A stretch of DNA of 38,773 nucleotides from a virus (taxonomy: Duplodnaviria > Caudoviricetes). Positions within the stretch are counted from its first letter, which is position 1; every line of letters begins with the position of its first letter. Below are positions 2,277 to 38,570 of this stretch, piece after piece. Under the pieces are notes generated by a model. That model was not told the origin of the DNA and did no database searches. It saw only the letters and a program-made list of their open reading frames with translations. Position numbers and translations under genes: made by a program. The stretch covers positions 1 through 38,773 of IMG/VR virus record IMGVR_UViG_3300020599_000172. One strand, 5' to 3'.

Positions 2277-3655
2277 CAGCGCTCACCGAAGTCGGCGATC
2301 TTGACCAGGAAGCCGTTGGTCATCTGCCTGCCGATGCGAACGATCCGGCCCGTCGCCGGAGGGGTGGTGACCAGATCTCCGCTGGGCCCCAGGTACGCAG
2401 TGGAACCTACCGCCAGGCCCGTCACCAGACCGGGGTGCATGCCTTCCACCAGCACGGGAGCAAGGGCTCCCGTCACGACAGCACCCCAGATGATCCCGAT
2501 AACCTCTCCACGACCAGCGGTGCCGGAACGGGCCTCCAGGAATTTTCCATTCGAGGAGTGGGAGACCACCTTGTTGGCGGAGATGTTTTCCCCAGGATCC
2601 AGATGAACCACGACTGCTTCTGGCTCGGCAGCGGGAGTAGTGACAATGTTGCCACTGCCGTCAAACGCCAAACCCGCACCGAGCTTGACGCCGACGCCAG
2701 TGACGCCATGCACGTCGACGCCTCTGGCCCCATCCCCCAGGACACCGACTCCGTTTGCATCCGAGACGATTCCCTTGTTGGCCTTGACCGCCACGGCGTC
2801 GGCCGTGACCTCGATGCCGTTGCCCGCCCCGACGTGGAAGGTGCGGTCAGCGGCCAGGGTCCCGCCGCCGGTGAGGCCGTTCCCGGCGATCAGGTTGCGG
2901 GTGGTGGGGGCCGCCCCCACGTCCGCTGCGGTGTGGGTGTGGTTGGAGCGCGCGGCCTGGTTGGAGCTCCCGGTGCCGGCGAAATCCACCCCGACGCCTT
3001 CGGGCGTCACAGTGATGCCGCCGCTGGGCTTGGGCAGAACGGCCACATCGCCCGTGGTGGTGAGACCGGCCCCGGACTTGAGCGAGATCGTATTCGACGA
3101 GATCTGGATGGAGCGCCCAGCCTGGAGCTCTGCCACCCGGCGGGCTTCGGTGAAGTCGATCGGGGTAGTATCGGGCGTGATGGTCGCGTCCGTCGAGAGC
3201 ACCCACTGGGTGTCCCGATGGATGTCGCCCTCGTTGACCCAGAGGACAACGCCGGCCCGAAGGCTGTCCGAGGCACGGACCATCGGCACGGAGGTACCCT
3301 TCCACAGGTAAATGCCGTTCTGCGCCTTGTTGGTCTGATTCTTCACCAGCACCCGGTCGTCCACGACCAGAATCACGTTGTCGATCGAGGCTCCTGGGGA
3401 GGCGAGGTTGAGGTTGGCGGTGGTGGCGGCCCGAGCCGGGTCGCGGAAGTAGAGACCCTGGGCGATGGAGTCCGCGTAGGTCTTGTTCACCGCATCGTTG
3501 GCCCCAACCGGCGTGGCCACGTTCTGGACGCGCGCACCACCCGCGTCGATGCCGCCGCCCAGCGACTTGAAGGCGTGGGCGTTGAGGGTGTCGGTGTTGT
3601 TGAGGTCGGCGGGATAGCCGGATGGATGCCGGACGAGCGGCTTCACGTCTGCCAT
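2276..3655 (-). CDS. Tail fibre / receptor-binding protein (459 aa)
   Basis: NVATPVGANDAVNKTY and AATTANL...DRVLVKNQT..QNGIY fibre motifs, AGNGL repeats, HTH metal motif. Confidence 0.8.
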   Translation of the reverse strand: MADVKPLVRHPSGYPADLNNTDTLNAHAFKSLGGGIDAGGARVQNVATPVGANDAVNKTYADSIAQGLYFRDPARAATTANLNLASPGASIDNVILVVDDRVLVKNQTNKAQNGIYLWKGTSVPMVRASDSLRAGVVLWVNEGDIHRDTQWVLSTDATITPDTTPIDFTEARRVAELQAGRSIQISSNTISLKSGAGLTTTGDVAVLPKPSGGITVTPEGVGVDFAGTGSSNQAARSNHTHTAADVGAAPTTRNLIAGNGLTGGGTLAADRTFHVGAGNGIEVTADAVAVKANKGIVSDANGVGVLGDGARGVDVHGVTGVGVKLGAGLAFDGSGNIVTTPAAEPEAVVVHLDPGENISANKVVSHSSNGKFLEARSGTAGRGEVIGIIWGAVVTGALAPVLVEGMHPGLVTGLAVGSTAYLGPSGDLVTTPPATGRIVRIGRQMTNGFLVKIADFGER

Positions 3656-5152: not shown

Positions 5153-5195
5153 GCGGGTCAGTATCCGCCCGAGTGTGCACTCCGTTGGGAGCGAC
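5153..5195 (-). promoter_or_regulatory. Putative late promoter box, copy 1 (upstream of tail fibre/lysis genes)
   Basis: 33-bp near-identical repeat of 26653-26685; GATACT -10-like hexamer 7 nt before ATG 5152. Confidence 0.65.
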
Positions 5196-8100
5196 TACCG
5201 CTCGCCGCTGATCACGTCGCTCCCGACCGACAGCGGCGAGGCCCCGCGGTAGGGGCTGTCGCCGAAGAGGAGGAGGTCGCCGGCCTCGAGCGGATCGCGA
5301 GGCTCGAGCTCGCCCGTGTACATCTTCCAGGCAGCGCCTCCGGTCCGCTTCCCCTGGGTGACGGGGAGCCCTCGAACGCTGCCGTAGGCCTCGAGGACTG
5401 CGCCGACCTTCTCTTCCGGCTCATCGGACGCCGCGGCCTTCCCGAGGGCATTTATAAACCGCTCGCCGGCGGCGAACATCGGGGACACCGCCAAGCTGAA
5501 CCGCCGATGCTTCGCCTTGCCGTGCCAGGCAAAGGTGGTGACCCGCCCCGCCGCCTCCTCGGCCGCCCACCCAACGAAGGGAACCACGATGAAGGGGGCG
5601 GTCAGCGCCTTGCGGGTCGCCCACTCGTCCCATCCTTCGTCCTCCTCGGGGCCGTCGCCCACCAGGAACGAGCCAAGGACGTTGGTGGCGAGAAGAAGCG
5701 CAAAGGCCTTCCCGTAGGCCCGGGCGCGACCGGCGGGCGTGTCTGCCTCGCCCATCAGGCGCAAGACGATGTTCCCGAGCTGGTTGAAGAATCCGAACAT
5801 CGCCAGGAGTGACCCGATCCCTTTCCGATCTCGCAGGAGCGCCGACTGCTCGAGGGCGGTCGCCGAGGGCTGGTGCTTTCGCACCACGTCGTCGGCATGC
5901 TGGATCGCCCGGGCCTCGTCTTCTGCGGTCGGCTCGCCCGTCTTCGAGCGCTTCGCCGCGGCCGCCAGGTAGTCGTTGCGCGCAGCATCCCAGATGATCG
6001 TGGACGTGTAGGCGTCGAGCTCCTCCTGGATGATGAAGCTGTGGTCGATGATGAAGTCCTCGACCCGCCGCACCGGTTCGTAGGCCTTGGTCACCGGATT
6101 GAAGACCTTGGTCCATCCCTCTCGCCGCCGCTTCGTGTTCCCCTTGCGGCCCACCTCGCGCATCTTGTGCTGCAACGTCTCCCGCAGGTTGGCCGCTCGC
6201 TTCTGCAGCTCGGGGGAGAGCGCCAGCGCTTCCTGGCGCAGCCGCCGGTAAGCCAGGGGCGTCCCGTGCCGGAGGGAGGCAGACAAGGAGCGGGCGCTGA
6301 CTTCGCCCGTTATCAACGGGGTGGCGACCTGGAGGATGTCCGCTCCCCAGGAGCGCACGTTGTACGCCAGCGCCGAGAACACGAAGGCCGAACGGGCCTT
6401 TCCGAGACCGCCGAGCATGAAGTTCGTAAAGCCCGAGACCGAGGCGTCTTGGCTCTCCGCCACCGCCTTGGTCCACTCGCGCAGCCGGTCGATGTAGGGC
6501 CGCCCAAGTCGCCGCTCCACCGCCTCGAGGAAGGCGTCCTGCGCGAGCAGGCGGTTCATGTCCCGCACGAACTCCTCGAAGGCGATGTAATGGATCACCT
6601 GGGAGAGGTGGGCGGGCACCGTGCCCCATTCAAGCGAGAGGGTGCCGTCGAACCTTCGAGCGCGCGACTTGGTGAACCCCTTGGCGACCGCCGCGGCCGC
6701 GCTCGAGCGGGAGTCCTGCACCCCGGCGTCGGCTTGGCGCGCGGCGATCATCCCGGAGGAGGGATCGCGCGCCTGGGTGTCCATGCGGATGGGGAAGTAG
6801 CCGCCCGCGTAGTGCACCGACTGGCCGTCAGCCAAGCGGAGGGTGAACGGGGCGTTGGGCACCCGCCCCGGGCGGATCCCGTTCACCCGCTCGTGGACCT
6901 TCTCCATGTGAGGGCGCAGGCGCTCTGTGATCGCCAAGATCCCCTGGAGGAAGTCCGCCTCTTCCTTGGTGAGGTTGGCTTGGAGGAATCCCAGGACCTG
7001 CTCCTCGGTCCACCCGAATCCGTCCAGCAGCCGCTGCCGGTTGCCCTCGTTGCCCCAGTTCAAGAAGAGCATCCACATCCACTCGCGCGTGGTGGGGGTC
7101 TCGTCGCGGCGGGTGCGACCGGCGACCGGGAGCATGGAGGAGTCCACGGCCTCGTAGCGTCGCTCCTGCATCTCCTCGGGAAGGGCATCCCACGCCTTCA
7201 TGAAGTCGACGGTCACCTCGTCCGCGAGGCGCTTCTCTTCGATCTGGGCCTCGAGGAAGCGCCGGAACATCGAGTGCGCCTTCTGGCCGAGCTGCTCGAA
7301 GATGAGCTCGATGTTCTTGTAGCCGGAGATGAAGCCAATCCGCCTCAGCTTCCGCCCCCAGGCTTCCGCCTCGAAGGCCTCGTCCTTGGGCGACAGGCCC
7401 CGGTCTCGGATCGCGGTCGCCTGCTGGCGGACCTCCCCAGCGAAGTCGTGGAAGTACTGGCGCCGCCCCTCGACGAAGAACTCCGACACCACGATCCCCG
7501 CCTTCTTGGCTTGGAGCAGGGTGGCGTGCACTTCGGCCAGGTCTTCGACGGAGAGCTTGCGCCAGTCCGGCCCCTTCGCCTGCTCGAAGAGGATCCGCGC
7601 CACGCGCCCCTGGTCGTAGACCGGGGTGATGCCGATGTCCGCGAGGATGCCGGACAGGGCGCCGATGCCTGCAAAGGCGGGCAGGTCGGGGTCGTCGGGC
7701 CGGGCGCCGAGCTGGACGAGGAGTCCATCGATCAGGTCCCGGAGCTCGGGGTTGGCGACCCCGATGCGCGCCCGGCGCTTGTTGTCGTTGAGCTCGCCCA
7801 CCGTCTTGGTGAACGCGTCCCGGGCCTTCTCGGCCGCCACGAGCTCCCGGTAAAGGAAGTGGTTGAGGAGCTGCTGCTGCTTGGCCTTGGTGGCGGCTCC
7901 CCAGTCCCGGGCCAGGAGGGCCTTCTGGAAGCGGTCCGCCGCTCGCCGCTCCTCGAGGAGGGCGCGCCGGGGAGAAAGCTTGCCGACCGGCGTCCGCGCG
8001 ACGATCTGCCGCGCCGCCCGCTTGATGGCCTCCACCGGCACGGTGCGGCTGCCGCTGGTCGCGCCGAGGCTCACCAGCTCCCGCAAGATCGCGTCGCCGT

Positions 8101-11100
8101 AGCCCTTCTCCGAGTGCTGCACCTCGTGGATCTGCTGGGCGAGCGACTCCCGATCGGCGAGCAGATCCCCGTGCTTTTCCCGCATCCGCTGCGCCGCGAG
8201 GTTCTGGGTCCACTTGTCCCTGGCCGGGAGGTTCTGGGACCACACCGCCTCGAACATCTCCCGGGCGCTGGCGAAGCCCAGCTCCGCGGCCAGGTTCTCG
8301 GCAGGCTCGCCCCGCTTCTTCCGCGACTTCTTGAGGAGGATCCCGCGCAGCTCCTTGAGCTGGGGATGGTTCTTCCCCAGCACCGCTTCGGCGGAGTCGC
8401 GATCGATGCGGACCGCCGGCTCGACCTTCTCGCCGTTCAGCTCCGAGAAGCGCAGGTAACGCCAAGCCCTCACCGCCGGCAGGGCGTCGTACTCAGCCTC
8501 GGCCGCCTCGAGCTCTTTCGCGAGCTCCTCCCGATACCAGCGCTCCGCCTCCCGCTTCCGGTCCTCGAGGGCGCGCAAGGCGACCTGCTTTTCCTCCTCG
8601 AGCTCGGCACGGTCCATCGCCGCCTGGTATTCCGCCCAGGCGGCATCATCCATGTACTCGGGCCGCTCGAGCAGGCGCCTGCTGCCGGACCGCTCCCGAG
8701 CGAGCTCGATCTCCGCGTCCGTGGCCAGGAGGCGGTCGAACACCCCGCGCACGTCGTCGGAGAGTTCCACGTCGAGGGCAGCGATCGCGCTGTAGATCCG
8801 CTTCATCCACATCTTGATCCGCCCGAAGGCCCGGCGCAGCGCCGCGGACGGGGCCTTGCCCTCGAACAAGTACGCCTCGAAGCCGCGGGCGAATTGCTCG
8901 TGGTGCTCCCGCTGGATCTGAGAGCGGTCCTCCACCCCGAGCCACCCGAGAAGCTTGGCGAAGTCCTCGCGGATCTGCTCCGGGGCGTCTGACCGCGCCG
9001 CCAGGTCGGCGAACACCTCGAGCATCAGGTGCCCGGTCTCGTGCAGGAACGTGGAGAGGTCGCCCCGCTTGCCGATGGTGATGGTGAAGTCGTTGCCCGC
9101 CCGCTCCATGAAGCCGCGGGCCTTGCCGTCTCTGCGATGCTCGAACTTGCTGGAAGCAGGCGATGGAGATAGCTTGTCGAGCAGGCCCGCTCCCAGTTCG
9201 TCACGACTAAATGTAGGGGCGAGCTGCGTAGCGCCGGATCGAGCACGAACCTCACCGGTTGCATCGGGCCTGCCTTCCTCCCACCCCGTCAGTAGCCACG
9301 TTTTACGCTGCCCGTGCTCGTCGAGCGACAGCACCGCGCGTCCGGTCCCGTACGCCAGCTTGACGGTCTTCTTCTTCTCGGACCAATGCTCGACCGTGCC
9401 GAGAGCCACGGCACGAAGCACCTTCTCGACCACATCCACGCCGCGCCGGGCGCCAATCTTCTGGAGGCCAAACTTCCCGTCGCCCCAAGGGATCGCCACG
9501 TCCGGCGAGCCTCCGAAGGCCTCGAGATCGGGGCGCAGGCCCGTGGCGACGCCCTCCTCTGCCCCGGCGGCAAGCGCCTCGACTGCGCCGCGCACGTTCG
9601 CCAGCTTTGCGCCATCACGGCTCGTCCCACCGTGGTCCGGCTGGTAGAGCACCAGCGCGTTCCCGTCCTGTGCGTAGACCACCGTGTCGGAGAGGAGCTT
9701 GGCGTGCAGCTCCTCCGGCGTCGCCGCCGTCTCGAACATCGTCGTCTGCCGGGGATCCCGGGCCGCCTCGTGCGCCCAGGCACGGAAGCGGGCCTCGAGC
9801 TCGCGGGGCTTGGAGCGATCGAGCAGCGACGCCATCCGAACCACGTCCGGATCTTGCCTCGTCTCGGCGAAGAGGCCTTGCTGCCCGGTGAGCTCCTCGA
9901 GGGTGAGGCCGCGCGCCCGGGCGTCGTTGAGGAGGTCGAGGGCCTGCTGCACCAGCGGGATCGCGCTCGCCGCCGGGTTCACTCCCTCGACGCGCAGGAG
10001 CGGTGCGGCGAGCCGCTCGACCTTCGCCGCGATCGACGGCGCCGTCTTCGCCAGGCGGTCCCCGGAGCCGACCACGCGCCCGAGGAACATCCCCTCGATC
10101 CGGTCCTTCGCTTCATCGGTGAGGTTCGCGCCGGCGAGCCAAGCCGCCTGGTTCTGCGCGGTGATGATGCCGTCGCGGCGCAGGATCTGGACGAGCTCCG
10201 CCGGGCTCTCCCGCATGACCTCGCGCAAGGAGGCGTCGCCGCCGTCCGCGAGCAGCTCGCCGATCGCGGCGACCGTCTCCGGCGACATGGTCTTCGCCTC
10301 TGCCACCGCCCGGGCGCGTGGGGAGAGGGCCTGGGTGAGCCCTTCGTTGGTGCGCCGCACCGCCGCCACCAGGTCGGCCTGGGGAGCGTTTGAGGGCACG
10401 TCGTCGAGGACGCGCACCAGGACCGGCGCCTCCATCCCTTCGACCTTGGCCCGGTCGAGGCCGAAGCCTTCCGCCTTCTCGAGCAGGGCCTCTCGGTACT
10501 TCGCCCGGGCGCCCTCATCCCCGAAGGCACGCAGGAGCATCATCGAGCGGCCGTTGCCGCCGAGGACGATCGCCCGCCCGGCTGCCACCAGCGGGGGGCC
10601 GTCCACGGCCGTGGGCGTGTCGGTGAGGAGCAGCGCCGGGTTCAGCGTGGCCGCGCCCCTGGCGACCTTCGCCTTCTCCTCGGGCTGCCGGTGGTACTCC
10701 CGCTCCTGGACGCCGGCGGGATAGGCCGGGTGCGGCGTGAAGCCGTGCGGATCGTGGGAGGGGATGAGGTCGGCCGCCTCGATCACTGCGTAGTGCGCCC
10801 GCTCGCCCTGGGGGCGCTGCGGCGTGATCACGCGGGTGTCGTTGCCGACTACTCCTTGGCGTCGGGGGCCGGCGAAGCGCTGGCGTCCGGTCCGGGGACG
10901 ATCACTCGGCCCTTGTAGCGAATCGGTCCCGACACCCGCAGCTTCCGCCCCGACTTCAGCATCTCCGTCACCTCGTCGAACGAGACGCTGCGCGTAGGCT
11001 TCTTCGCCGCGGAGGCCTGCTGCTCTTCGGTCGGCTTTGTTCTGGTTGAGGGCTGCGTCGGCATCGGCATCACTTTCTCCCACCCCGAACGAAAAAGGAA

Positions 11101-14100
11101 TCCCATGAAGGATGAATTCCTCCCCGGTCTGCGGGTCCGTCAGTGGGATTTCGATCTGCTCAGCGTTCTCCGCAAGCTTGCGGGCGAATTCCTCCAGGGT
11201 CGCGGCGTCGTCGTGCTGCCCTCTGAACTCGTCTCCTGAGACGTGCGCCGCATCCACGCTCGCCGCGCCCGTGTCCGCTGCGACGATCCCGAGCGCCTGG
11301 AGGATGAGATCGCCGCCCTCGAGGCCGAACCGGGTGTTGAAGTACTTCAGCCCGTCCACGTCGAGGGAGAGCCTCGCCGCCTTGGCCGGGAGCGAGTAGA
11401 ACCCCTGGCCCGTGAGCAAGCCCGACGCCGGCTCGACGAACATCGCCTCGAACGCCTGCTCTTCCGGCATGGCGTCGAAGGCCTCCTCGAGGCCCGCGGG
11501 CAGAGGGCGTGCCGTCGGCGCCGGCGCATCGAACGCCGCCCCTTCGGTGAGCCCAAGGGGCCGCTCCCCGCGCGGCGCCCGCCGCCCTTCCGCCTCGAGC
11601 TGGGCCTTGACCTCACCGTGGGCCTGACCGGCCGCCTCGAACGTCTCCCCGATCGCCCCCGTCACCTGGAGGCCCTGAAGCTCCGGGCGGTCGTTGATGG
11701 CCTCCAGCAGCGCGTCGAGCTCCGCCTGGTCGCGGACGCGCACCGCGAAGTCGCCGCCGATCTTCGCGGCGTCCGGCGCAACCTCTCCGAGGGCCGCCCC
11801 CACCGCGCGGTAGAGGGCATCGCCGGCGACGTGGCTCTCGGTGTCGTTGATGAACTTCGTCCCCTCGACCGACAGGTGGGCGACGAGCGGGCGCTCCGGA
11901 TCGACCGGGAGGGCGTCGAAGCCACGGCGGTTGAGCAGTCCCGTGTTCGTGTCCCGGTAGAAGGCGGCCAGCCGTGTCTCACGGCTCATCTCGTGGAAGG
12001 CGTCGGTGAGCCTCCTCGAGGCCGGCGGGATCTCGTCCTGGGCTGCGAGGATCTCGGGCGCCACCTCGAGCAGCGCTTCCGCCTGCTCCGCAGGCTTGGC
12101 CTTCGCCGCCGGCGGACGCCGCCCCTGGGGTGTCGCCTGCACCCTTCGCCCGGAGCCGGTGATCTTCAGCGTGTACGCCTTGAAGATCTCCTTGGCCGGG
12201 ATCTTGAAGCGCTCCGCCATCACCCGGGCGAAGGCGCGCAAGGGGGCGAGCTGCGCCTGGACGTTCGTCTTCGCCACGCCCGCCGCCTCGAGCTGCGCCT
12301 CGGCCGCCGCCAGGAAGTCCGCCTCCGCGGCCGACTCCGCGGGCACGTTCTCCTGCTCGAAGCGCTTGACCAGCTCCTGCGCCGCCTCCTCGATCGCGGC
12401 GTTCTCCTGGACCAGCTCCGCGGGGGTCCGATGGCCCGGCCGCGTCGCCGCGTGTTGGGCGAGCTCGTCGGCGAAGGGGAGGGCGCCCAGCCGCGACACG
12501 TAGCCTTCGACCGGGATCTCGATCTTCCCGCCGGTGGCTTCCGCCTCAGCAAGCCTGGCTTCGGCGTCCTCGCCCAGGAAGGGCCGGGGATCGACGTTGT
12601 TCTCCTGGAAGAGGCGGAGCACCGGCTCGGCGTCCAGGAAGATGCTGGTCACCTCCTCGCCGCTCTTGGCAGTCTCCACCCGGATCGCCTCTGCGATCGC
12701 GTCCGGCGCCGCCTTGGCGGTGTCGCCCTGGGCGAGCTCGTGGAGCTTCTCCACGACGGCCTGGCTGGAGAGTTCCCGGCCGAGCTGCCGCATCGCCTCC
12801 CTGCGACGCTCGGCGCGCAGCCGCAGGGTCTCCACTCCTGCTTCCCTTGCCGCGCCCACGAGGCCCGGCCCGGCGCCGCCCAGGGCGCCCAGGAAGAAGT
12901 CCCCGAAGGTGCCCTCAAGGAGCGGCACCTGAACCCCGGAACCCGCCGCCGTGCCGGATCGAGTGGCGACCGTCTCCAGGACTTCCTCGGTGCCTTCCTC
13001 GAGAGCGCTGGCCGTCGTCCGCGCCAACGCGGTCACCGCCCGCCCGCGCCCCACGAAGAACCGGGTGGCGGGATGCGCCAACTTGGCGGTGAGCTGCCCG
13101 CCCACCGCGCCCACGGGGGCGGCGAAGGCGGCTGCCCAATCCTCGGCCTGCTGCCGGGTGTGGGCCACCGCCTCCTCGTGGCCCATCCCCCGCGCCCGGG
13201 CGGCCCGGTATACCGACGACTCGTCCGCGATCGCGAAGGTGCCCTCGACCCTGCCGGGCGTGTTCGCCAGGGTGTCGATCGTCTGGCGGGCGTCATCGAC
13301 CGCCGCGCCGGCGGACTGGGCGCCGCCGATGGCGAGGCCCACCCGCCCCGCGACCGCCGCGCTCCCGGCGGCCCACGACATCGCAAGCAGGGGCGCCATC
13401 TGCCCGAAGATCTCGGTGCCGTGCAGGGCGAAGCCGCGCAGGGACGGGGCCTCTCCCAAGCTCCAGGTGGACGGGCGAAACAGGTTGCCCGACGGCGTGG
13501 AGCCTTCAACAGCCCCATGGCCCATCGGAGAAACCCTGGCGTCCCCCTTCTGCGCCTGCCGCTCAATCCAGTCGGCCCACGGGTCGCCGATGTTGGGCAT
13601 TTCGTAGGAGAGCCCGAACGTCTCCAGCGCCGGGTCCGCCACCGCCTGCCCGGCGATTCGCAGTAGCCCGCCGGCACCGCGGAACGCCATCGCGTAGCCC
13701 CTCAGTGCCCCCGCGTTGAGCTTGAACCAGAGGTCCCCGGCGAGATTGGACTCCTGGGAAGAGGCGCTGAGTTGCTGGAGAGCGGCGAGCGAGGGGTCCC
13801 GCATGGCGATCTCGGCCAGGTCGGGATCCCGACGGATCATCGCGTCGAGAACCGGGTTCTCGCGGCGCCACTTCGCCGGGTCGAACTTCGCCGACTCCCA
13901 GGAGCGGGCGAGATCCTCGAGGTTGCGCTCCACGAAGTCCCGAGGGAGCCCCGTTTCCTTGGCGAACCGATGCACCACCGCCTCGGCCGGCAGCGATGTC
14001 ATGGTGGGCATCGACTGCTCGAAGGCGCGGCGCACGAATGCGTTGGCGGCGTTCTCTCCCGCCTGCATCCGCTCGAAGGCTTCGTCGTAGGGGTTGATGG

Positions 14101-14203
14101 AGTAGGGCTGCTCTTCGTAGAGCCGATCGGCCGCGTCCGCGTAGGGGTTGACGGTGGGATCGGTCAGGTCCCGGTTGCCCAGCGTCTCGTCGAAGATCGC
14201 CAT
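5195..14203 (-). CDS. Giant internal virion/ejection polyvalent protein (3002 aa): 2x GGDEF-like, DdrB-ParB-like, PBECR-like RNase, zincin metallopeptidase motif
   Basis: Position of T7 gp16-type genes; motifs DTNTGLLNRRGF/KFINDT.SH.AGD, DVDGLKYFN...SGDEF, YAVIEAADLIPSHD/GNGR, WG...GL..I...WLLTGWE, TFLHETGH...HEQFARGFEAYL. Confidence 0.9.
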   Translation of the reverse strand: MAIFDETLGNRDLTDPTVNPYADAADRLYEEQPYSINPYDEAFERMQAGENAANAFVRRAFEQSMPTMTSLPAEAVVHRFAKETGLPRDFVERNLEDLARSWESAKFDPAKWRRENPVLDAMIRRDPDLAEIAMRDPSLAALQQLSASSQESNLAGDLWFKLNAGALRGYAMAFRGAGGLLRIAGQAVADPALETFGLSYEMPNIGDPWADWIERQAQKGDARVSPMGHGAVEGSTPSGNLFRPSTWSLGEAPSLRGFALHGTEIFGQMAPLLAMSWAAGSAAVAGRVGLAIGGAQSAGAAVDDARQTIDTLANTPGRVEGTFAIADESSVYRAARARGMGHEEAVAHTRQQAEDWAAAFAAPVGAVGGQLTAKLAHPATRFFVGRGRAVTALARTTASALEEGTEEVLETVATRSGTAAGSGVQVPLLEGTFGDFFLGALGGAGPGLVGAAREAGVETLRLRAERRREAMRQLGRELSSQAVVEKLHELAQGDTAKAAPDAIAEAIRVETAKSGEEVTSIFLDAEPVLRLFQENNVDPRPFLGEDAEARLAEAEATGGKIEIPVEGYVSRLGALPFADELAQHAATRPGHRTPAELVQENAAIEEAAQELVKRFEQENVPAESAAEADFLAAAEAQLEAAGVAKTNVQAQLAPLRAFARVMAERFKIPAKEIFKAYTLKITGSGRRVQATPQGRRPPAAKAKPAEQAEALLEVAPEILAAQDEIPPASRRLTDAFHEMSRETRLAAFYRDTNTGLLNRRGFDALPVDPERPLVAHLSVEGTKFINDTESHVAGDALYRAVGAALGEVAPDAAKIGGDFAVRVRDQAELDALLEAINDRPELQGLQVTGAIGETFEAAGQAHGEVKAQLEAEGRRAPRGERPLGLTEGAAFDAPAPTARPLPAGLEEAFDAMPEEQAFEAMFVEPASGLLTGQGFYSLPAKAARLSLDVDGLKYFNTRFGLEGGDLILQALGIVAADTGAASVDAAHVSGDEFRGQHDDAATLEEFARKLAENAEQIEIPLTDPQTGEEFILHGIPFSFGVGESDADADAALNQNKADRRAAGLRGEEAYAQRLVRRGDGDAEVGAEAAGVGTDSLQGPSDRPRTGRQRFAGPRRQGVVGNDTRVITPQRPQGERAHYAVIEAADLIPSHDPHGFTPHPAYPAGVQEREYHRQPEEKAKVARGAATLNPALLLTDTPTAVDGPPLVAAGRAIVLGGNGRSMMLLRAFGDEGARAKYREALLEKAEGFGLDRAKVEGMEAPVLVRVLDDVPSNAPQADLVAAVRRTNEGLTQALSPRARAVAEAKTMSPETVAAIGELLADGGDASLREVMRESPAELVQILRRDGIITAQNQAAWLAGANLTDEAKDRIEGMFLGRVVGSGDRLAKTAPSIAAKVERLAAPLLRVEGVNPAASAIPLVQQALDLLNDARARGLTLEELTGQQGLFAETRQDPDVVRMASLLDRSKPRELEARFRAWAHEAARDPRQTTMFETAATPEELHAKLLSDTVVYAQDGNALVLYQPDHGGTSRDGAKLANVRGAVEALAAGAEEGVATGLRPDLEAFGGSPDVAIPWGDGKFGLQKIGARRGVDVVEKVLRAVALGTVEHWSEKKKTVKLAYGTGRAVLSLDEHGQRKTWLLTGWEEGRPDATGEVRARSGATQLAPTFSRDELGAGLLDKLSPSPASSKFEHRRDGKARGFMERAGNDFTITIGKRGDLSTFLHETGHLMLEVFADLAARSDAPEQIREDFAKLLGWLGVEDRSQIQREHHEQFARGFEAYLFEGKAPSAALRRAFGRIKMWMKRIYSAIAALDVELSDDVRGVFDRLLATDAEIELARERSGSRRLLERPEYMDDAAWAEYQAAMDRAELEEEKQVALRALEDRKREAERWYREELAKELEAAEAEYDALPAVRAWRYLRFSELNGEKVEPAVRIDRDSAEAVLGKNHPQLKELRGILLKKSRKKRGEPAENLAAELGFASAREMFEAVWSQNLPARDKWTQNLAAQRMREKHGDLLADRESLAQQIHEVQHSEKGYGDAILRELVSLGATSGSRTVPVEAIKRAARQIVARTPVGKLSPRRALLEERRAADRFQKALLARDWGAATKAKQQQLLNHFLYRELVAAEKARDAFTKTVGELNDNKRRARIGVANPELRDLIDGLLVQLGARPDDPDLPAFAGIGALSGILADIGITPVYDQGRVARILFEQAKGPDWRKLSVEDLAEVHATLLQAKKAGIVVSEFFVEGRRQYFHDFAGEVRQQATAIRDRGLSPKDEAFEAEAWGRKLRRIGFISGYKNIELIFEQLGQKAHSMFRRFLEAQIEEKRLADEVTVDFMKAWDALPEEMQERRYEAVDSSMLPVAGRTRRDETPTTREWMWMLFLNWGNEGNRQRLLDGFGWTEEQVLGFLQANLTKEEADFLQGILAITERLRPHMEKVHERVNGIRPGRVPNAPFTLRLADGQSVHYAGGYFPIRMDTQARDPSSGMIAARQADAGVQDSRSSAAAAVAKGFTKSRARRFDGTLSLEWGTVPAHLSQVIHYIAFEEFVRDMNRLLAQDAFLEAVERRLGRPYIDRLREWTKAVAESQDASVSGFTNFMLGGLGKARSAFVFSALAYNVRSWGADILQVATPLITGEVSARSLSASLRHGTPLAYRRLRQEALALSPELQKRAANLRETLQHKMREVGRKGNTKRRREGWTKVFNPVTKAYEPVRRVEDFIIDHSFIIQEELDAYTSTIIWDAARNDYLAAAAKRSKTGEPTAEDEARAIQHADDVVRKHQPSATALEQSALLRDRKGIGSLLAMFGFFNQLGNIVLRLMGEADTPAGRARAYGKAFALLLATNVLGSFLVGDGPEEDEGWDEWATRKALTAPFIVVPFVGWAAEEAAGRVTTFAWHGKAKHRRFSLAVSPMFAAGERFINALGKAAASDEPEEKVGAVLEAYGSVRGLPVTQGKRTGGAAWKMYTGELEPRDPLEAGDLLLFGDSPYRGASPLSVGSDVISGER
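9147..9175 (+). promoter_or_regulatory. Putative sigma70 promoter antisense within giant gene
   Basis: TTGCTG(9147-9152)-17 nt-TAGCTT(9170-9175), in a patch where the host ORF uses atypical AT-ending codons. Confidence 0.5.
9181..9273 (+). ncRNA. Candidate structured antisense small RNA nested in giant gene
   Basis: Perfect 9-bp closing stem GCAGGCCCG/CGGGCCTGC starting at predicted TSS; internal hairpin and possible pseudoknot. Confidence 0.45.
10849..11070 (-). CDS. Nested out-of-frame small protein (73 aa, MPMPTQPSTR...) inside giant gene
   Basis: GGAG 6 nt before ATG; about 10 of 73 codons end in A/T in this frame versus about 33 of 74 in the giant ORF frame (hand count). Confidence 0.65.
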   Translation of the reverse strand: MPMPTQPSTRTKPTEEQQASAAKKPTRSVSFDEVTEMLKSGRKLRVSGPIRYKGRVIVPGPDASASPAPDAKE

Positions 14204-15985: not shown

Positions 15986-16570
15986 TCACCACCCCTTGCC
16001 GCGGTAGCTCATCCAGTTGCGCCACTGCTGGCTGGACACGCCTGTAGTGGTGCCCGCCATCGCTGCGCCGCTCGCTCCGGGCGCCGCCGTGCCGCCGAAC
16101 ATGCCGGCCCCGTAGGCGCCCAAGCCAACGCTTCCCAGGCCTCCGAGGAGCGAGCCCGCCGCCGCCATGTTGCCCGCCCGCCGGGCGCCCGCTGCCTGCC
16201 GGGCGAGCTCGTCCGCCTGGTTGCGGTAGCCCCACGCCTCCCGGGCCGCGTTGTTGGCGATGATCGCTGCGTCGAGCTCGCTCGCCGCCCGGGTGTCCGC
16301 CGCCAGGGCGGCCGCCGATCCGGTGGAGGGGTCGATCCCCGACGCGCCGAACGCCGCCCGCTGCTCCCCGATCACCTGGGAGCCGGCGAGGCGCGCACGC
16401 CCCGCCTCGAGCTGGCCGCGCTGCACGGCGTCGCCGGCGGCGATGAGGGAGAACCGGCGGTTGGCCTCGGCCGCTCGAGCGGCCTCCTGGCCCTGCTGAT
16501 GCTGGCCGTAGGCCTGCACCCCGGCGCCGACACCCATCATGATCAGGGCTGCGGTAGTGGGCTCGCACAT
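15986..16570 (-). CDS. Internal virion/ejection protein (T7 gp14-like, 194 aa)
   Basis: MCEPTTA.. start, hydrophobic N-terminus, G.QRAAFGASGID...GS motif, Gly/Ala-rich tail. Confidence 0.8.
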   Translation of the reverse strand: MCEPTTAALIMMGVGAGVQAYGQHQQGQEAARAAEANRRFSLIAAGDAVQRGQLEAGRARLAGSQVIGEQRAAFGASGIDPSTGSAAALAADTRAASELDAAIIANNAAREAWGYRNQADELARQAAGARRAGNMAAAGSLLGGLGSVGLGAYGAGMFGGTAAPGASGAAMAGTTTGVSSQQWRNWMSYRGKGW

Positions 16571-17013
16571 GCTGCACCTCGACGAAGAAGGATTCGGTGG
16601 AAGAGGAGGCCTGCTGCTCCGAACGTCTCCGGCGGCCCTACCTCGAAGCCCAAGCGCCGCACCCATCGCAGCGCCGCCGCGTAGCGGGCGTCGACGTAGT
16701 TCACGAGCGCCGGGTAGTGGCGCAGGAGCACGCCGACCGCGACGCGGGAGTGGCGCAGGAACGCCTTGGGATGGCGCTCGACCGCTGGCCCGGTGAGCGC
16801 CCACACGATGCCGCACCCGGGCCCGTCGACCACACCCCACATGCCGGCGACCTCGCCGTCAAAGAGGGCCGCGAAGGCGTGGGCGGAGGCCCTCACGGAC
16901 TCCTCGAGGGCCTCCCGCGGCGTGAACCCGCCCGACGCCAACACCTCGGCCGCATCCGCCGGACGCAGCTTGGGGGCGAGCTCGTCCACGTGCGCGGGCG
17001 CCGCTGGCACCAT
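16543..17013 (-). CDS. T7 gp13-like protein (GNAT-fold virion assembly protein)
   Basis: LRPADAAEV...LVNYVDARY..ALRWVRRLGF; position after tail tubular B; start may be TTG 17031. Confidence 0.75.
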   Translation of the reverse strand: MVPAAPAHVDELAPKLRPADAAEVLASGGFTPREALEESVRASAHAFAALFDGEVAGMWGVVDGPGCGIVWALTGPAVERHPKAFLRHSRVAVGVLLRHYPALVNYVDARYAAALRWVRRLGFEVGPPETFGAAGLLFHRILLRRGAACASPLPQP

Positions 17014-36789: not shown

Positions 36790-37140
36790 ATGAGCGTCGT
36801 TCAGATTGTCACTCTCACCCGGGCCGAGCTCGAGGAGCTCCTCGAGGAAGCGGCCGCCCGCGGAGCCGCCCGGGCCGCACCTCCTCCACCGCCTGCGAAG
36901 CTGCACGCTGACGAGCTCGTCCCGGTGGCGGTCGCCGCCAAGGCCTGCGGCTGCTCGCCCGACACCATCCACGCGATGATCCGCGCCGGGAAGCTGCCGG
37001 ACCGTCGCGCAGGCACCAAGCGCGGGCACTACCGGGTGCGGATCTCGGAGGTTGAGGGAGCGATGCGCCGGCGGACTGAACGCCCGGCCCCGATTGATCC
37101 AGAGGCCGCCGTCGTGCGCATGCTGGCCCGCCGGAGGTGA
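36790..37140 (+). CDS. xis: Excisionase-like HTH protein
   Basis: V..AAKACGCSPDTIHAMIRAGKL......G.YRV...EV; GGAGG RBS; directly upstream of integrase. Confidence 0.8.
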   Translation: MSVVQIVTLTRAELEELLEEAAARGAARAAPPPPPAKLHADELVPVAVAAKACGCSPDTIHAMIRAGKLPDRRAGTKRGHYRVRISEVEGAMRRRTERPAPIDPEAAVVRMLARRR

Positions 37141-38570
37141 AGATGGCCGTGGGGAGAGGCCGCGTCTTCGTGCGCGGCAGCCGGCTTTGGCTCGACTACG
37201 ACGACGAAGCGGGGAAGCGCCGGCGGCAGTCGACCGGCCTCGAGGTCGGGCAGGAGCGCGAGGCGGAGGCCATGCTCCGGGCACTGCTCGCGCAGTTGGA
37301 GGCCGGCAAGGAGCTGGGCATCGATCCAAAGACGGTCACCGTCAAGCAGTGGGCCGCGCTGTGGCTCGAGGCCCGCGAAGCGCGGGATCTCTCGATGGCG
37401 GGTGAGGATCGAAAGCGGCTCGAGCGGTACATCTACCCGAAGCTGGGGGACGTACGCCTTGCCGACCTTCGGCCACGACGGGTGCGCCTCTTCGTCGCGG
37501 GCCTGTCGAGCTTGCCATCGAACCGTGGTGGAACGCTGGCCCCGCGGACGGTGCGCCACATCGCGACGACCCTTCGCCAGCTGCTTCGGGGCGCCGTGCG
37601 CGAAGAGCTGATCCCCTCCTCCCCCTTCGTGCTCGATCGTGAGGACCTCCCCGAGGTGATGGACAAAGACCCTGCGTGGCGCGCCGGCGCAGTGTTCACC
37701 CGGGCCGAGCTCGAGCTGCTCATCTCTCACCCTGACATCCCGCTGCACAGGCGGGTCGCCTATGCGATCCTAGGCCTCGGGGGCCTGCGATGGGGGGAGC
37801 TCGCAGCCCTGCAGTGGCGGAGCTACGACACCACCCCCAAGCCCCTCGGCCGCCTCACCGTCGCCCAGGCCGTCTCGAGGAAGCGGAAGAAGACCAAGCT
37901 CGGCCGGACGAAGACCGGCGCGACGAGGCTGGTGCCCGTCCACCCCACCCTGGCGAAGATCCTCGCCACCTGGCGCCTCGAGGGCTGGCCGGCCGAGTAC
38001 GGTCGAGCGCCCGAAGGAGAGGACCTCCTCCTCCCCTCGAGCGACGACCTGGCGAAGCATCGCTCCGGCATCCGCGCGCTGCGCCGGCTGCACGAAGACC
38101 TGGTCCGCCTCGGCCTTCCCCGGCGCCGCCTCCACGACCTCCGGCGGACGATGATTTCGATCGCCCAGGACGACGGCGCCGTGCGGGACGTCCTTCGGGA
38201 GATCACCCACACGAAGAAGAAGAGCGACATCGTCGCGGACTACACCTCACTGCGATGGGAGACGCTCTGCCGCGCGGTCTCGTGCATCCGGATCGCCGTC
38301 AGGGAGGGGCAGGTGGTGGAGATTCGGGCGGCCGCTGGCGGGGGCGGGTCTGGCACAGTGCTGTCACACCGGCCGATCTTGACGCTCCGCGACACAAAAA
38401 AGCCTCGTAAGAATCGCTCCTTACGAGGCTCCGTTTTGGTCGGGGAGACAGGATTTGAACCTGCGACCCCCTCGTCCCGAACGAGGTGCTCTACCAGGCT
38501 GAGCCACTCCCCGGCATGTCGGTGCTGCACCCTCGGCGATCGGGGTCGCCGAGGGTGCGGGCGGATCTAG
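37137..38570 (+). CDS. int: Tyrosine integrase; reading frame runs through att and antisense tRNA
   Basis: GLRWGE (R), TKT (K), HDLRR (HxxR), ITH, ADY (Y); N-terminal arm-binding region RRRQSTG. Confidence 0.92.
   Translation: MKMAVGRGRVFVRGSRLWLDYDDEAGKRRRQSTGLEVGQEREAEAMLRALLAQLEAGKELGIDPKTVTVKQWAALWLEAREARDLSMAGEDRKRLERYIYPKLGDVRLADLRPRRVRLFVAGLSSLPSNRGGTLAPRTVRHIATTLRQLLRGAVREELIPSSPFVLDREDLPEVMDKDPAWRAGAVFTRAELELLISHPDIPLHRRVAYAILGLGGLRWGELAALQWRSYDTTPKPLGRLTVAQAVSRKRKKTKLGRTKTGATRLVPVHPTLAKILATWRLEGWPAEYGRAPEGEDLLLPSSDDLAKHRSGIRALRRLHEDLVRLGLPRRRLHDLRRTMISIAQDDGAVRDVLREITHTKKKSDIVADYTSLRWETLCRAVSCIRIAVREGQVVEIRAAAGGGGSGTVLSHRPILTLRDTKKPRKNRSLRGSVLVGETGFEPATPSSRTRCSTRLSHSPACRCCTLGDRGRRGCGRI
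38395..38430 (-). terminator. Intrinsic terminator downstream of tRNA-Pro
   Basis: AGCCTCGTAAG/CTTACGAGGCT 11-bp stem followed by a T run on - strand. Confidence 0.8.
38437..38513 (-). tRNA. tRNA-Pro (anticodon CGG), integration target
   Basis: CGGGGAG acceptor stem, TGGTA D-loop, CCTCG-TTCGGGA-CGAGG anticodon arm, GGTTCAAATCC, encoded CCA; 77 nt. Confidence 0.97.

Follow-up and report, generated by a model that had tools for sequence, protein, structure and literature searches.

Phage polyvalent proteins are large multidomain products encoded in a virion context; the accessible text of their description (Iyer et al. 2017, PMC5512222) lists metallopeptidase (MPTase), DdrB-ParB, PBECR and GGDEF domains among their components, proposes that they are injected, and finds PBECR domains in up to 26% of polyvalent proteins. 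The window analysed here, that is, the whole 38,773-nucleotide virus record IMGVR_UViG_3300020599_000172 (Duplodnaviria, Caudoviricetes), contains a gene of this kind (P0001) for a protein of 3002 amino acids: several conflict domains and a zincin MPTase share one large open reading frame (ORF), which lies among virion genes with portal, capsid, tail, gp14-like and tail-fibre neighbours. Unlike in that text (PMC5512222), where no nested ORF, antisense RNA or immunity is mentioned for these domains and the word "overlap" occurs 0 times in the main text, the gene carries two nested genes, a +1-frame ORF behind a pair of GGDEF domains and an antisense structured RNA behind an RNase-like domain. 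The chances that each of them encodes an antidote to the domain in front of it appear, from the nucleotide data, evenly balanced.

Among the systems that invite comparison are those of type III toxin-antitoxin (TA) character, represented by ToxIN and by the further type III-like systems AbiQ, CptIN, TenpIN and AbiF-AbiFr. The likeness to ToxIN, as far as the available part of its description goes (PMC5772629), consists in a structured RNA tightly tied to an RNase and in direct inhibition, which is predicted for the present locus. The differences are that the toxin here has a BECR-like fold, is not HEPN and gives no ToxN/AbiQ, TenpN or CptN Pfam match, and that the RNA is single-copy, downstream, on the opposite strand, equipped with its own predicted promoter and usually overprinted, whereas type III antitoxins are upstream, co-transcribed repeat arrays. 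MuF and polymorphic toxins (PMC12226406; BECR-Tox2/Imm2, 10.64898/2026.08.28.747851), in the accessible portions of these sources, share with the locus an effector domain of temperate phages with a cognate element directly behind it. In L075 (loci are numbered with L throughout) this RNase forms the C-terminal part of a MuF fusion; in the present gene, however, the effector is internal and the putative immunity factor is an RNA or a nested out-of-frame ORF, whereas in the MuF type it is a protein with a gene of its own downstream.

Convergent type I antitoxin RNAs, as in prophages of Bacillus and Clostridioides, are antisense, overlap the toxin mRNA and are driven by a promoter of their own close to the 3′ end of the toxin sequence; judged by its promoter and strand bias, the RNA described here is likewise predicted to overlap the mRNA of its putative toxin in antisense. 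It differs in that its partner is a BECR domain of about 100 amino acids within 3002, not a small hydrophobic peptide, and in having invariant unpaired bases and a closed junction, which suggest recognition by a protein. The +1-frame ORF recalls lambda Rz1, which likewise lies out of frame on the same strand of a larger gene, Rz, and has a ribosome-binding site of its own; the present ORF, though, is tied to a mobile enzymatic domain of an ejection protein and not to a lysis complex. As a whole the cassette belongs to none of the type I, type III and MuF-type systems, although it probably functions in a similar way.

The arrangement of an effector domain with a nested antidote was not found described in the full-text literature searched, which was covered by titles and beginnings of abstracts and outside subscription journals; the accessible text of the BECR preprint (10.64898/2026.08.28.747851) contains neither "antisense" nor "RNA antitoxin". 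Some candidates of Fremin 2021, in the accessible part of that source, list PBECR domains within 5 kb. A 15-mer of the RNA core is absent from the searchable supplements of Fremin 2021 (except files 7 and 8) and Fremin 2023 (except files 1, 2 and 4), and the RNA may already exist as an unannotated candidate in the files of Fremin 2021, Fremin 2023 or Weinberg 2017.

Two codon-usage dips and the antisense RNA

The gene has a mean G+C content at third codon positions (GC3) of 0.893, which drops in 50-codon windows to 0.50 and 0.54 in two dips, the minimum elsewhere being 0.80; values as low as these occurred in 0/2000 codon permutations. An earlier note, made from the letters of this DNA, had claimed that the two clearest codon-usage anomalies follow the GGDEF pair and the RNase, and an automatic scan of the gene returned exactly these two dips (residues 1015-1119 and 1628-1694). 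Its layout of GGDEF pair, DdrB-ParB, PBECR-like and zincin domains and a helical core is borne out by Pfam, fold models, the HExxH motif and phrog_9880 (Table 1), and its view that each anomaly resolves into a hidden element also held: dip 1, behind the GGDEF pair, corresponds to the +1-frame ORF, and dip 2, behind the RNase-like domain, to the structured RNA, whose antisense position and own predicted promoter are additions to that note.

The RNase-like domain of the window itself has no Pfam match (PF18809, PBECR1), but 10 of 34 aligned members match PBECR1. The best matches of its structure model are CdiA-CT/RelE BECR folds, at middling Z scores of 6.2-5.0 and a root-mean-square deviation of 3.4-5.4 Å with 75-90 residues aligned; contact-dependent inhibition (CDI) toxins and colicin D are among the structural matches, and the Ser/Thr expected in the last BECR strand is present as Thr in WLLTG. 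Peptide patterns taken from the domain only retrieved 15 viral and 37 genome loci, the latter from records titled in many phyla, which together with L003, L004 and the window make 55 loci. The terminal WLLTG strand is found in 54 of these, and after removal of 10 near-duplicates and 5 pattern misses 39 were aligned.

In this alignment RNAalifold finds compensatory change in 20 of 24 pairs. In a 31-pair structure, derived from the same 39 sequences that were used to score pairing, 91% of cells are paired and 23 of 31 pairs show two-sided change (0/500 shuffles equal this; slid controls pair 35-42%), the sequences being kin to one another and the counts not equal to independent events. The fold unites both ends in a closing helix and has two arms with invariant unpaired bases; variation is confined to paired positions, and there is no variable guide-like segment. 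Since an RNA model built from this structure matches 5/5 distant left-out loci (30-67 bits), the RNA can be counted as present in 54 of the 55 loci; the sole miss, L041, to which the model does not match, is a weak partial RNase match. The RNA itself has no match in Rfam, which returned only tRNA and a chance-level CRISPR-DR28 (E 0.67) outside of it, and the family is apparently undescribed.

Two observations concern the level at which the constraint acts. Synonymous codons are frozen, the top codon being used in 341/449 cases in the tail vs 143/396 in the domain (four- to six-fold codons of conserved residues, 35 in-frame loci), and in five loci (L070, L072, L073, L075 and L076) the motif continues past the protein stop as non-coding DNA, partly out of frame, which means that the constraint acts on nucleic acid. 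It is therefore very improbable that the dips are low-complexity linkers or sense-strand mRNA signals for pausing or frameshifting and the conserved tail a peptide motif. A tail peptide is recognisable in most homologues, and stop-free +1 windows are common in this GC-rich gene (64/144); against this, the tail is disordered in the structure model (predicted local distance difference test, pLDDT, about 45-52), its wobble positions are frozen, the motif outlives the reading frame, and strand asymmetry and promoter indicate an antisense element, so that for the RNA this explanation is already contradicted. A 79-residue +1 ORF at 9025-9264, considered as the element of dip 2, failed the Shine-Dalgarno (SD) and GC3 filters, the conserved unit being at the DNA level.

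With regard to the strand, G-U exceeds A-C pairing by 74 vs 19 on the antisense strand (counted over sequences, not events), and the window RNA folds with z -2.0 in antisense vs +0.4 in sense; single-sequence folding of 150-nt sense windows gives z about 0, the signal needing correct bounds and strand. With a sigma70 matrix, the antisense promoter score lies above the local control mean in 39/39 loci and above the control maximum in 38/39. The promoter stands at a fixed offset, mostly 14 nt from the conserved 5′ block of the RNA, the predicted start is the first base of the closing helix, and a U-run follows the helix in several loci. We hold with high confidence, on sequence grounds, that the RNA is real and transcribed. 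A linker ending in I-I-x(5-6)-V-N/K is common in polyvalent proteins behind the RNA and represents the translated reverse-strand -10/-35 boxes; it could mark nested antisense RNAs.

An antisense RNA that overlaps an mRNA and has its own predicted promoter might be a type I-like cis-antisense regulator, which pairs with the giant mRNA, triggers its decay and damps leaky expression in the lysogen. This is decidedly unlikely, as a cis-antisense RNA is automatically complementary to its target, and invariant loop bases and a closed three-way junction would be superfluous for it; further, where the RNase gene ends earlier the RNA overlaps only its 3′ flank, and such a regulator would give no protection during late expression of an essential gene.

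A scan with the RNA pattern in DNA only gave 22 matches, 20 of them confirmed by the RNA model (L160 and L163 are chance matches); 15 of the 20 sit 49-76 nt behind this RNase domain, 14 on contigs already known. RNase and RNA occur together in LPD22, LPD38, InPase, MuF and portal-Nudix proteins and as a solo gene, and GGDEF scaffolds that lack the RNase also lack the RNA. Linkage of this kind shows partnership, not the sign of the effect, and the same holds for the invariant unpaired nucleotides. Both would also suit an RNA that serves the BECR domain as cofactor, guide or substrate adaptor, in a ribonucleoprotein that is possibly co-packaged, with the nested peptide as an activator or nucleotide receptor of the GGDEF pair; the clade in which Lys replaces the predicted catalytic His keeps the RNA, and RNA binding is suggested for inactive PBECRs in the available text of Iyer et al. 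(PMC5512222). However, the RNA lacks a variable guide-like segment and varies only at paired positions, a constitutive host-type promoter would suit an antidote expressed in the lysogen more than late packaging, and the stand-alone RNAs of L168 and L180 look like orphan immunity genes, which makes a cofactor role unlikely. Inhibition of the RNase by its RNA is somewhat more probable than not. It is favoured for three reasons: the host-type promoter would work in a silent prophage; the RNA has conserved unpaired bases and about the size of a tRNA, which would suit binding by a protein with tRNases among its structural relatives; and, the effector being part of an essential gene, its antidote would have to act at the protein level while that gene is expressed late.

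The stand-alone copies (L168, 1477-1588; L180, 1477-1586) have promoter-like sites of their own and may be orphan antidotes; a NusG-like gene precedes one of them and a DUF3644/EC042_2821 gene the other. An AT-rich solo RNase with its RNA (L070, 1075-1640) lies between dnaA-like and dnaN-like genes (names read from translations) of a bacterial metagenome-assembled genome, apparently not in a prophage. In L177 (RNA at 1477-1588; 1687-2286) the RNA is found behind an LPD13 domain, and the presence of the same RNA there suggests LPD13 to be a BECR-like RNase.

The +1-frame ORF behind the GGDEF pair

The GGDEF pair (residues ~749-1065) is weakly matched by Pfam (E 4.5e-4, below cut-off), and its AlphaFold2 (AF2) model (pLDDT 92) has diguanylate cyclases as top Foldseek matches, which identifies the GGDEF fold. 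With respect to the diguanylate cyclase signature GG(D/E)EF, domain 1 is without the Glu and domain 2 reads SGDEF, a variant which diguanylate cyclases presumably tolerate and which keeps the Asp that we take to bind the metal. Being arranged in tandem in one chain, the pair could form an active dimer without a partner, which would suit delivery in few copies.

The nested ATG (11070) arises from the Asp-Ala codons that start the last GGDEF helix. Over the overlap the codon adaptation index (CAI) is 0.66 in the +1 frame vs 0.37 in the main frame, and main-frame GC3 rises back from 0.60 to 1.00 at the nested stop; an independently called homologue of the nested peptide (70 amino acids) is 62% identical. 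Each of L010-L015 has a +1 ORF of 48-85 amino acids starting at or beside the same helix, from D/Y/H codons. In all, a nested ORF begins at this helix in 11/11 distinct polyvalent GGDEF loci, four of which (L186=L187, L188, L193 and L194) were obtained after the hypothesis, and comparable SD, ATG and length are found in 1/24 canonical GGDEFs; the controls were 91 canonical loci from a metagenome scan, 24 of which fitted the helix pattern, the search windows were similar, not identical, for phage and control loci, and the phage anchors were picked by eye. The stand-alone GGDEFs L016 and L189 were excluded from the positive counts. An internal sense promoter is plausible in L010, L011, L013 and L015. 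From such sequence features it is very likely that the ORF is translated; a programmed +1 frameshift into it is disfavoured by the conserved SD and ATG.

The nested peptide is partly disordered, has no family match and no usable ESM Atlas match, and had no relatives in viral_contigs (searched via P0002); the GGDEF pair as a single query found none either. A PDB sequence search was empty. Divergent, partly disordered peptides without a family match would also be expected if the RNA were an antidote but the nested ORFs were small cargo genes of no relation, or relics of ancestral operon neighbours that came to be read through once a stop codon had been lost. The second nested ORF of L188, which resembles a membrane protein, and similar +1 ORFs in linkers behind unassigned domains of L003 and L014 would fit with this; nonetheless, the start is fixed at the same GGDEF helix in 11/11 loci and the codon bias is held up to the nested stop, both of which a relic would lose, and we regard cargo or relics as rather unlikely. 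That the nested peptide inhibits the GGDEF pair has, on present sequence evidence, slightly less than an even chance.

The second ORF of L188 (from 3606) is also in the +1 frame, follows the first, encodes about 91 amino acids with a hydrophobic N-terminal half and makes the nested unit a two-gene one. GC3 dips together with +1-frame SD-ATG ORFs were seen behind the unassigned domains of the other polyvalent proteins, from 2022 in L014 (38 amino acids) and from 1826 in L003 (67 amino acids).

L193 permits the two elements to be separated: an orthologous scaffold (28% identity over 1316 amino acids), it has the GGDEF pair and the nested ORF, neither a ParB nor a PBECR Pfam match, no RNA, and one dip only. 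This locus and the occurrence of the RNA with the RNase across unrelated scaffolds answer the check proposed in the earlier note, co-variation of nested elements with the adjacent domain among homologues. The comparison of these loci shows that both elements are conserved, fixed in position and travel with their domain between scaffolds.

Proposed working of the cassettes and their wider meaning

The following scenario would account for the arrangement. Host sigma70 polymerase would transcribe the RNA from its own antisense promoter, so that both lysogens and cells assembling virions would contain it; the RNA would fold into a tRNA-sized three-way junction and bind the BECR RNase as a decoy or inhibitor, by a logic like that of type III systems. 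The 73-residue peptide, whose translation would start at an internal Shine-Dalgarno site, would attach to the single-chain GGDEF pair and stop it from making cyclic dinucleotides. Packaged without its antidotes and injected, the protein would exert its domain activities in a naive cell, whereas a cell with the same cassette would neutralise them. BECR toxins have cognate immunity proteins according to the accessible text of one preprint (10.64898/2026.08.28.747851); a domain buried in an essential gene could presumably not have an ordinary downstream immunity gene, and overprinting would allow domain and antidote to be swapped into an essential virion gene as a single in-frame block.

Several points weigh against this scenario, in addition to the kinship of the aligned sequences. 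At the position in the N-terminal helix that is occupied by the predicted catalytic His in 112 of 150 homologues and by Lys in 12, the RNase of the window has Lys, and this copy still keeps its RNA. GGDEF domain 1 is degenerate, and to our knowledge cyclic dinucleotides are not usually lethal. The window promoter is weak (score 4.7, controls at most -0.7, vs a mean of 11.1), and a strict promoter scanner reports none in the window. Five of the 20 DNA-pattern matches are not behind this RNase domain (L177, L170, L165, L168 and L180); the RNA of L170 lies behind an unassigned polyvalent domain, and the copy in L165 is truncated, beside MuF. As to the nested ORF, the peptides are 13-27% identical between clades; between L011 and L186, changes in the +1 frame are non-synonymous in 11 cases and synonymous in 4, which is not a clean purifying signal, with wobble suppression in both frames; the ATG of L193 has a weak SD (-3.5, below the control threshold), L013 gives no codon-bias discrimination, and a good internal promoter was not seen ahead of the window ORF (score 1.9) and was not evident in L012 or L014. 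Finally, the earlier note had every potentially toxic domain travel with a nested element; this is true of the GGDEF pair and the RNase, and "each" is wrong in view of the ParB region, which has a GC3 minimum of 0.86, no dip and no nested element. Its interpretation is thus partly supported, for two of three domains and at the level of anatomy and co-variation in sequence. One PBECR family has Arg at the His position (Iyer et al. 2017, PMC5512222, accessible text).

In the best reading, the gene presents toxin-immunity logic in a new form, a type III-like RNA antitoxin and a peptide inhibitor travelling with effector domains; RNA antitoxins would then be known also for the BECR fold and for effectors delivered by virions. 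A more general proposal, which we put forward tentatively and consider somewhat doubtful, is that phage-delivered BECR RNases as a class use RNA as immunity factor, each family with its own tRNA-sized three-way-junction decoy made antisense from inside or just behind the gene, and that other ejection-protein effectors have overprinted peptide antidotes. Hints beyond the main RNA family are similarly shaped antisense structures behind PBECR3 (L073) and behind PBECR1-like domains of Helicobacter (L184/L185). If this were true, polyvalent proteins would be strings of self-contained toxin-antidote cassettes, by which the lysogen neutralises the virions of its kin while naive cells are hit on injection. 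A cognate RNA would give direct access to the targets of PBECR domains and to the way in which the producer cell survives them: the fold of such an RNA may resemble that of the substrate, and with it the toxic domains could be cloned. Such genes belong to a class missed by design by gene callers and intergenic RNA screens, for which a GC3-dip scan of large virion genes is a cheap route to more; the Minerva preprint (10.64898/2026.09.22.753630), in whose accessible text "BECR" is absent, states that its own approach is unable to model structured RNAs within coding sequences.

The structure in L073 (395-475, minus strand), which follows a PBECR3 gene that stands alone, is a different three-way junction (z -5.1); its ends are paired, it has an antisense promoter, and two short words are common to it and the main RNA. 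In two Helicobacter prophage records (L184, 1800-1895; L185, 1762-1860; minus strand) a shared tail behind distant PBECR1-like domains has no match to the model; the same fold, a closing stem with two hairpins, is predicted in both, with z only -1.5 and -1.6. In L170 (reverse complement) a long linker behind LPD3 (residues 56-153) ends in an antisense promoter match (score 11.7), with no clear structure in this one sequence.

Gene features and provirus setting

The window is a provirus record, 92% complete, with genes for terminase, portal, capsid, tail, a T7 gp14-like internal protein and a tail fibre, and also encodes a helix-turn-helix (HTH) regulator. The provirus is podo-like and the giant gene polyvalent and of the ejection type; the order of the genes suggests that it occupies the position of the largest ejection protein.

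Table 1. Features of the giant gene and its surroundings, with positions in the window.
Feature	Position	Strand	Basis or remark
Polyvalent ejection-type protein P0001, 3002 aa	5195..14203	-	after gp14-like and gp15-position genes, before tail fibre
LPD22-like N-terminal domain, aa 73-135	13799..13987	-	E 2.5e-4, below Pfam cut-off
Gly/Ala-rich hydrophobic region, aa 266-480	12764..13408	-	sequence; phrog_2206 E 9e-11
GGDEF domain 1, degenerate signature without Glu	11579..11959	-	fold model and signature
GGDEF domain 2, SGDEF signature, metal-binding Asp presumably kept	11009..11461	-	fold model and signature
Shine-Dalgarno-like site of nested ORF	11076..11081	-	upstream of ATG 11070
Nested +1-frame ORF, 73 aa, candidate GGDEF inhibitor	10849..11070	-	second possible ATG at 11064
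ddrB-ParB domain, aa 1136-1266	10406..10798	-	E 1e-18; no nested element behind
PBECR1-related BECR-fold RNase-like domain, aa ~1541-1641	9281..9583	-	Lys replaces family His
Antisense structured RNA, ~89 nt, three-way junction, paired ends; candidate RNA antitoxin	9183..9271	+	covariation
Predicted sigma70-type promoter of RNA	9147..9175	+	-35 at 9147-9152, 17 nt, -10 at 9170-9175; weak in window, strong in relatives
Zincin-like metallopeptidase domain, HExxH at aa 1721-1725	8714..9106	-	sequence; phrog_9880 E 6e-63
Helical C-terminal scaffold	5198..8656	-	phrog_9880; 28% identity to L193 orthologue
T7 gp14-like internal virion protein	15986..16840	-	PF24072 E 2e-8
Integrase-like ORF overlapping tRNA-Pro (38437-38513)	37137..38570	+	E 1.6e-4, below cut-off; provirus context

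Two mild GC3 dips, at residues ~322-400 of the frame, were also seen in a tail or decoration gene of the window (2279-3655, minus strand), where no nested ORF was found. The 9009-base giant gene is present at 100% identity in a genome record titled Vulgatibacter sp., which we take to be a genus of the Myxococcota.

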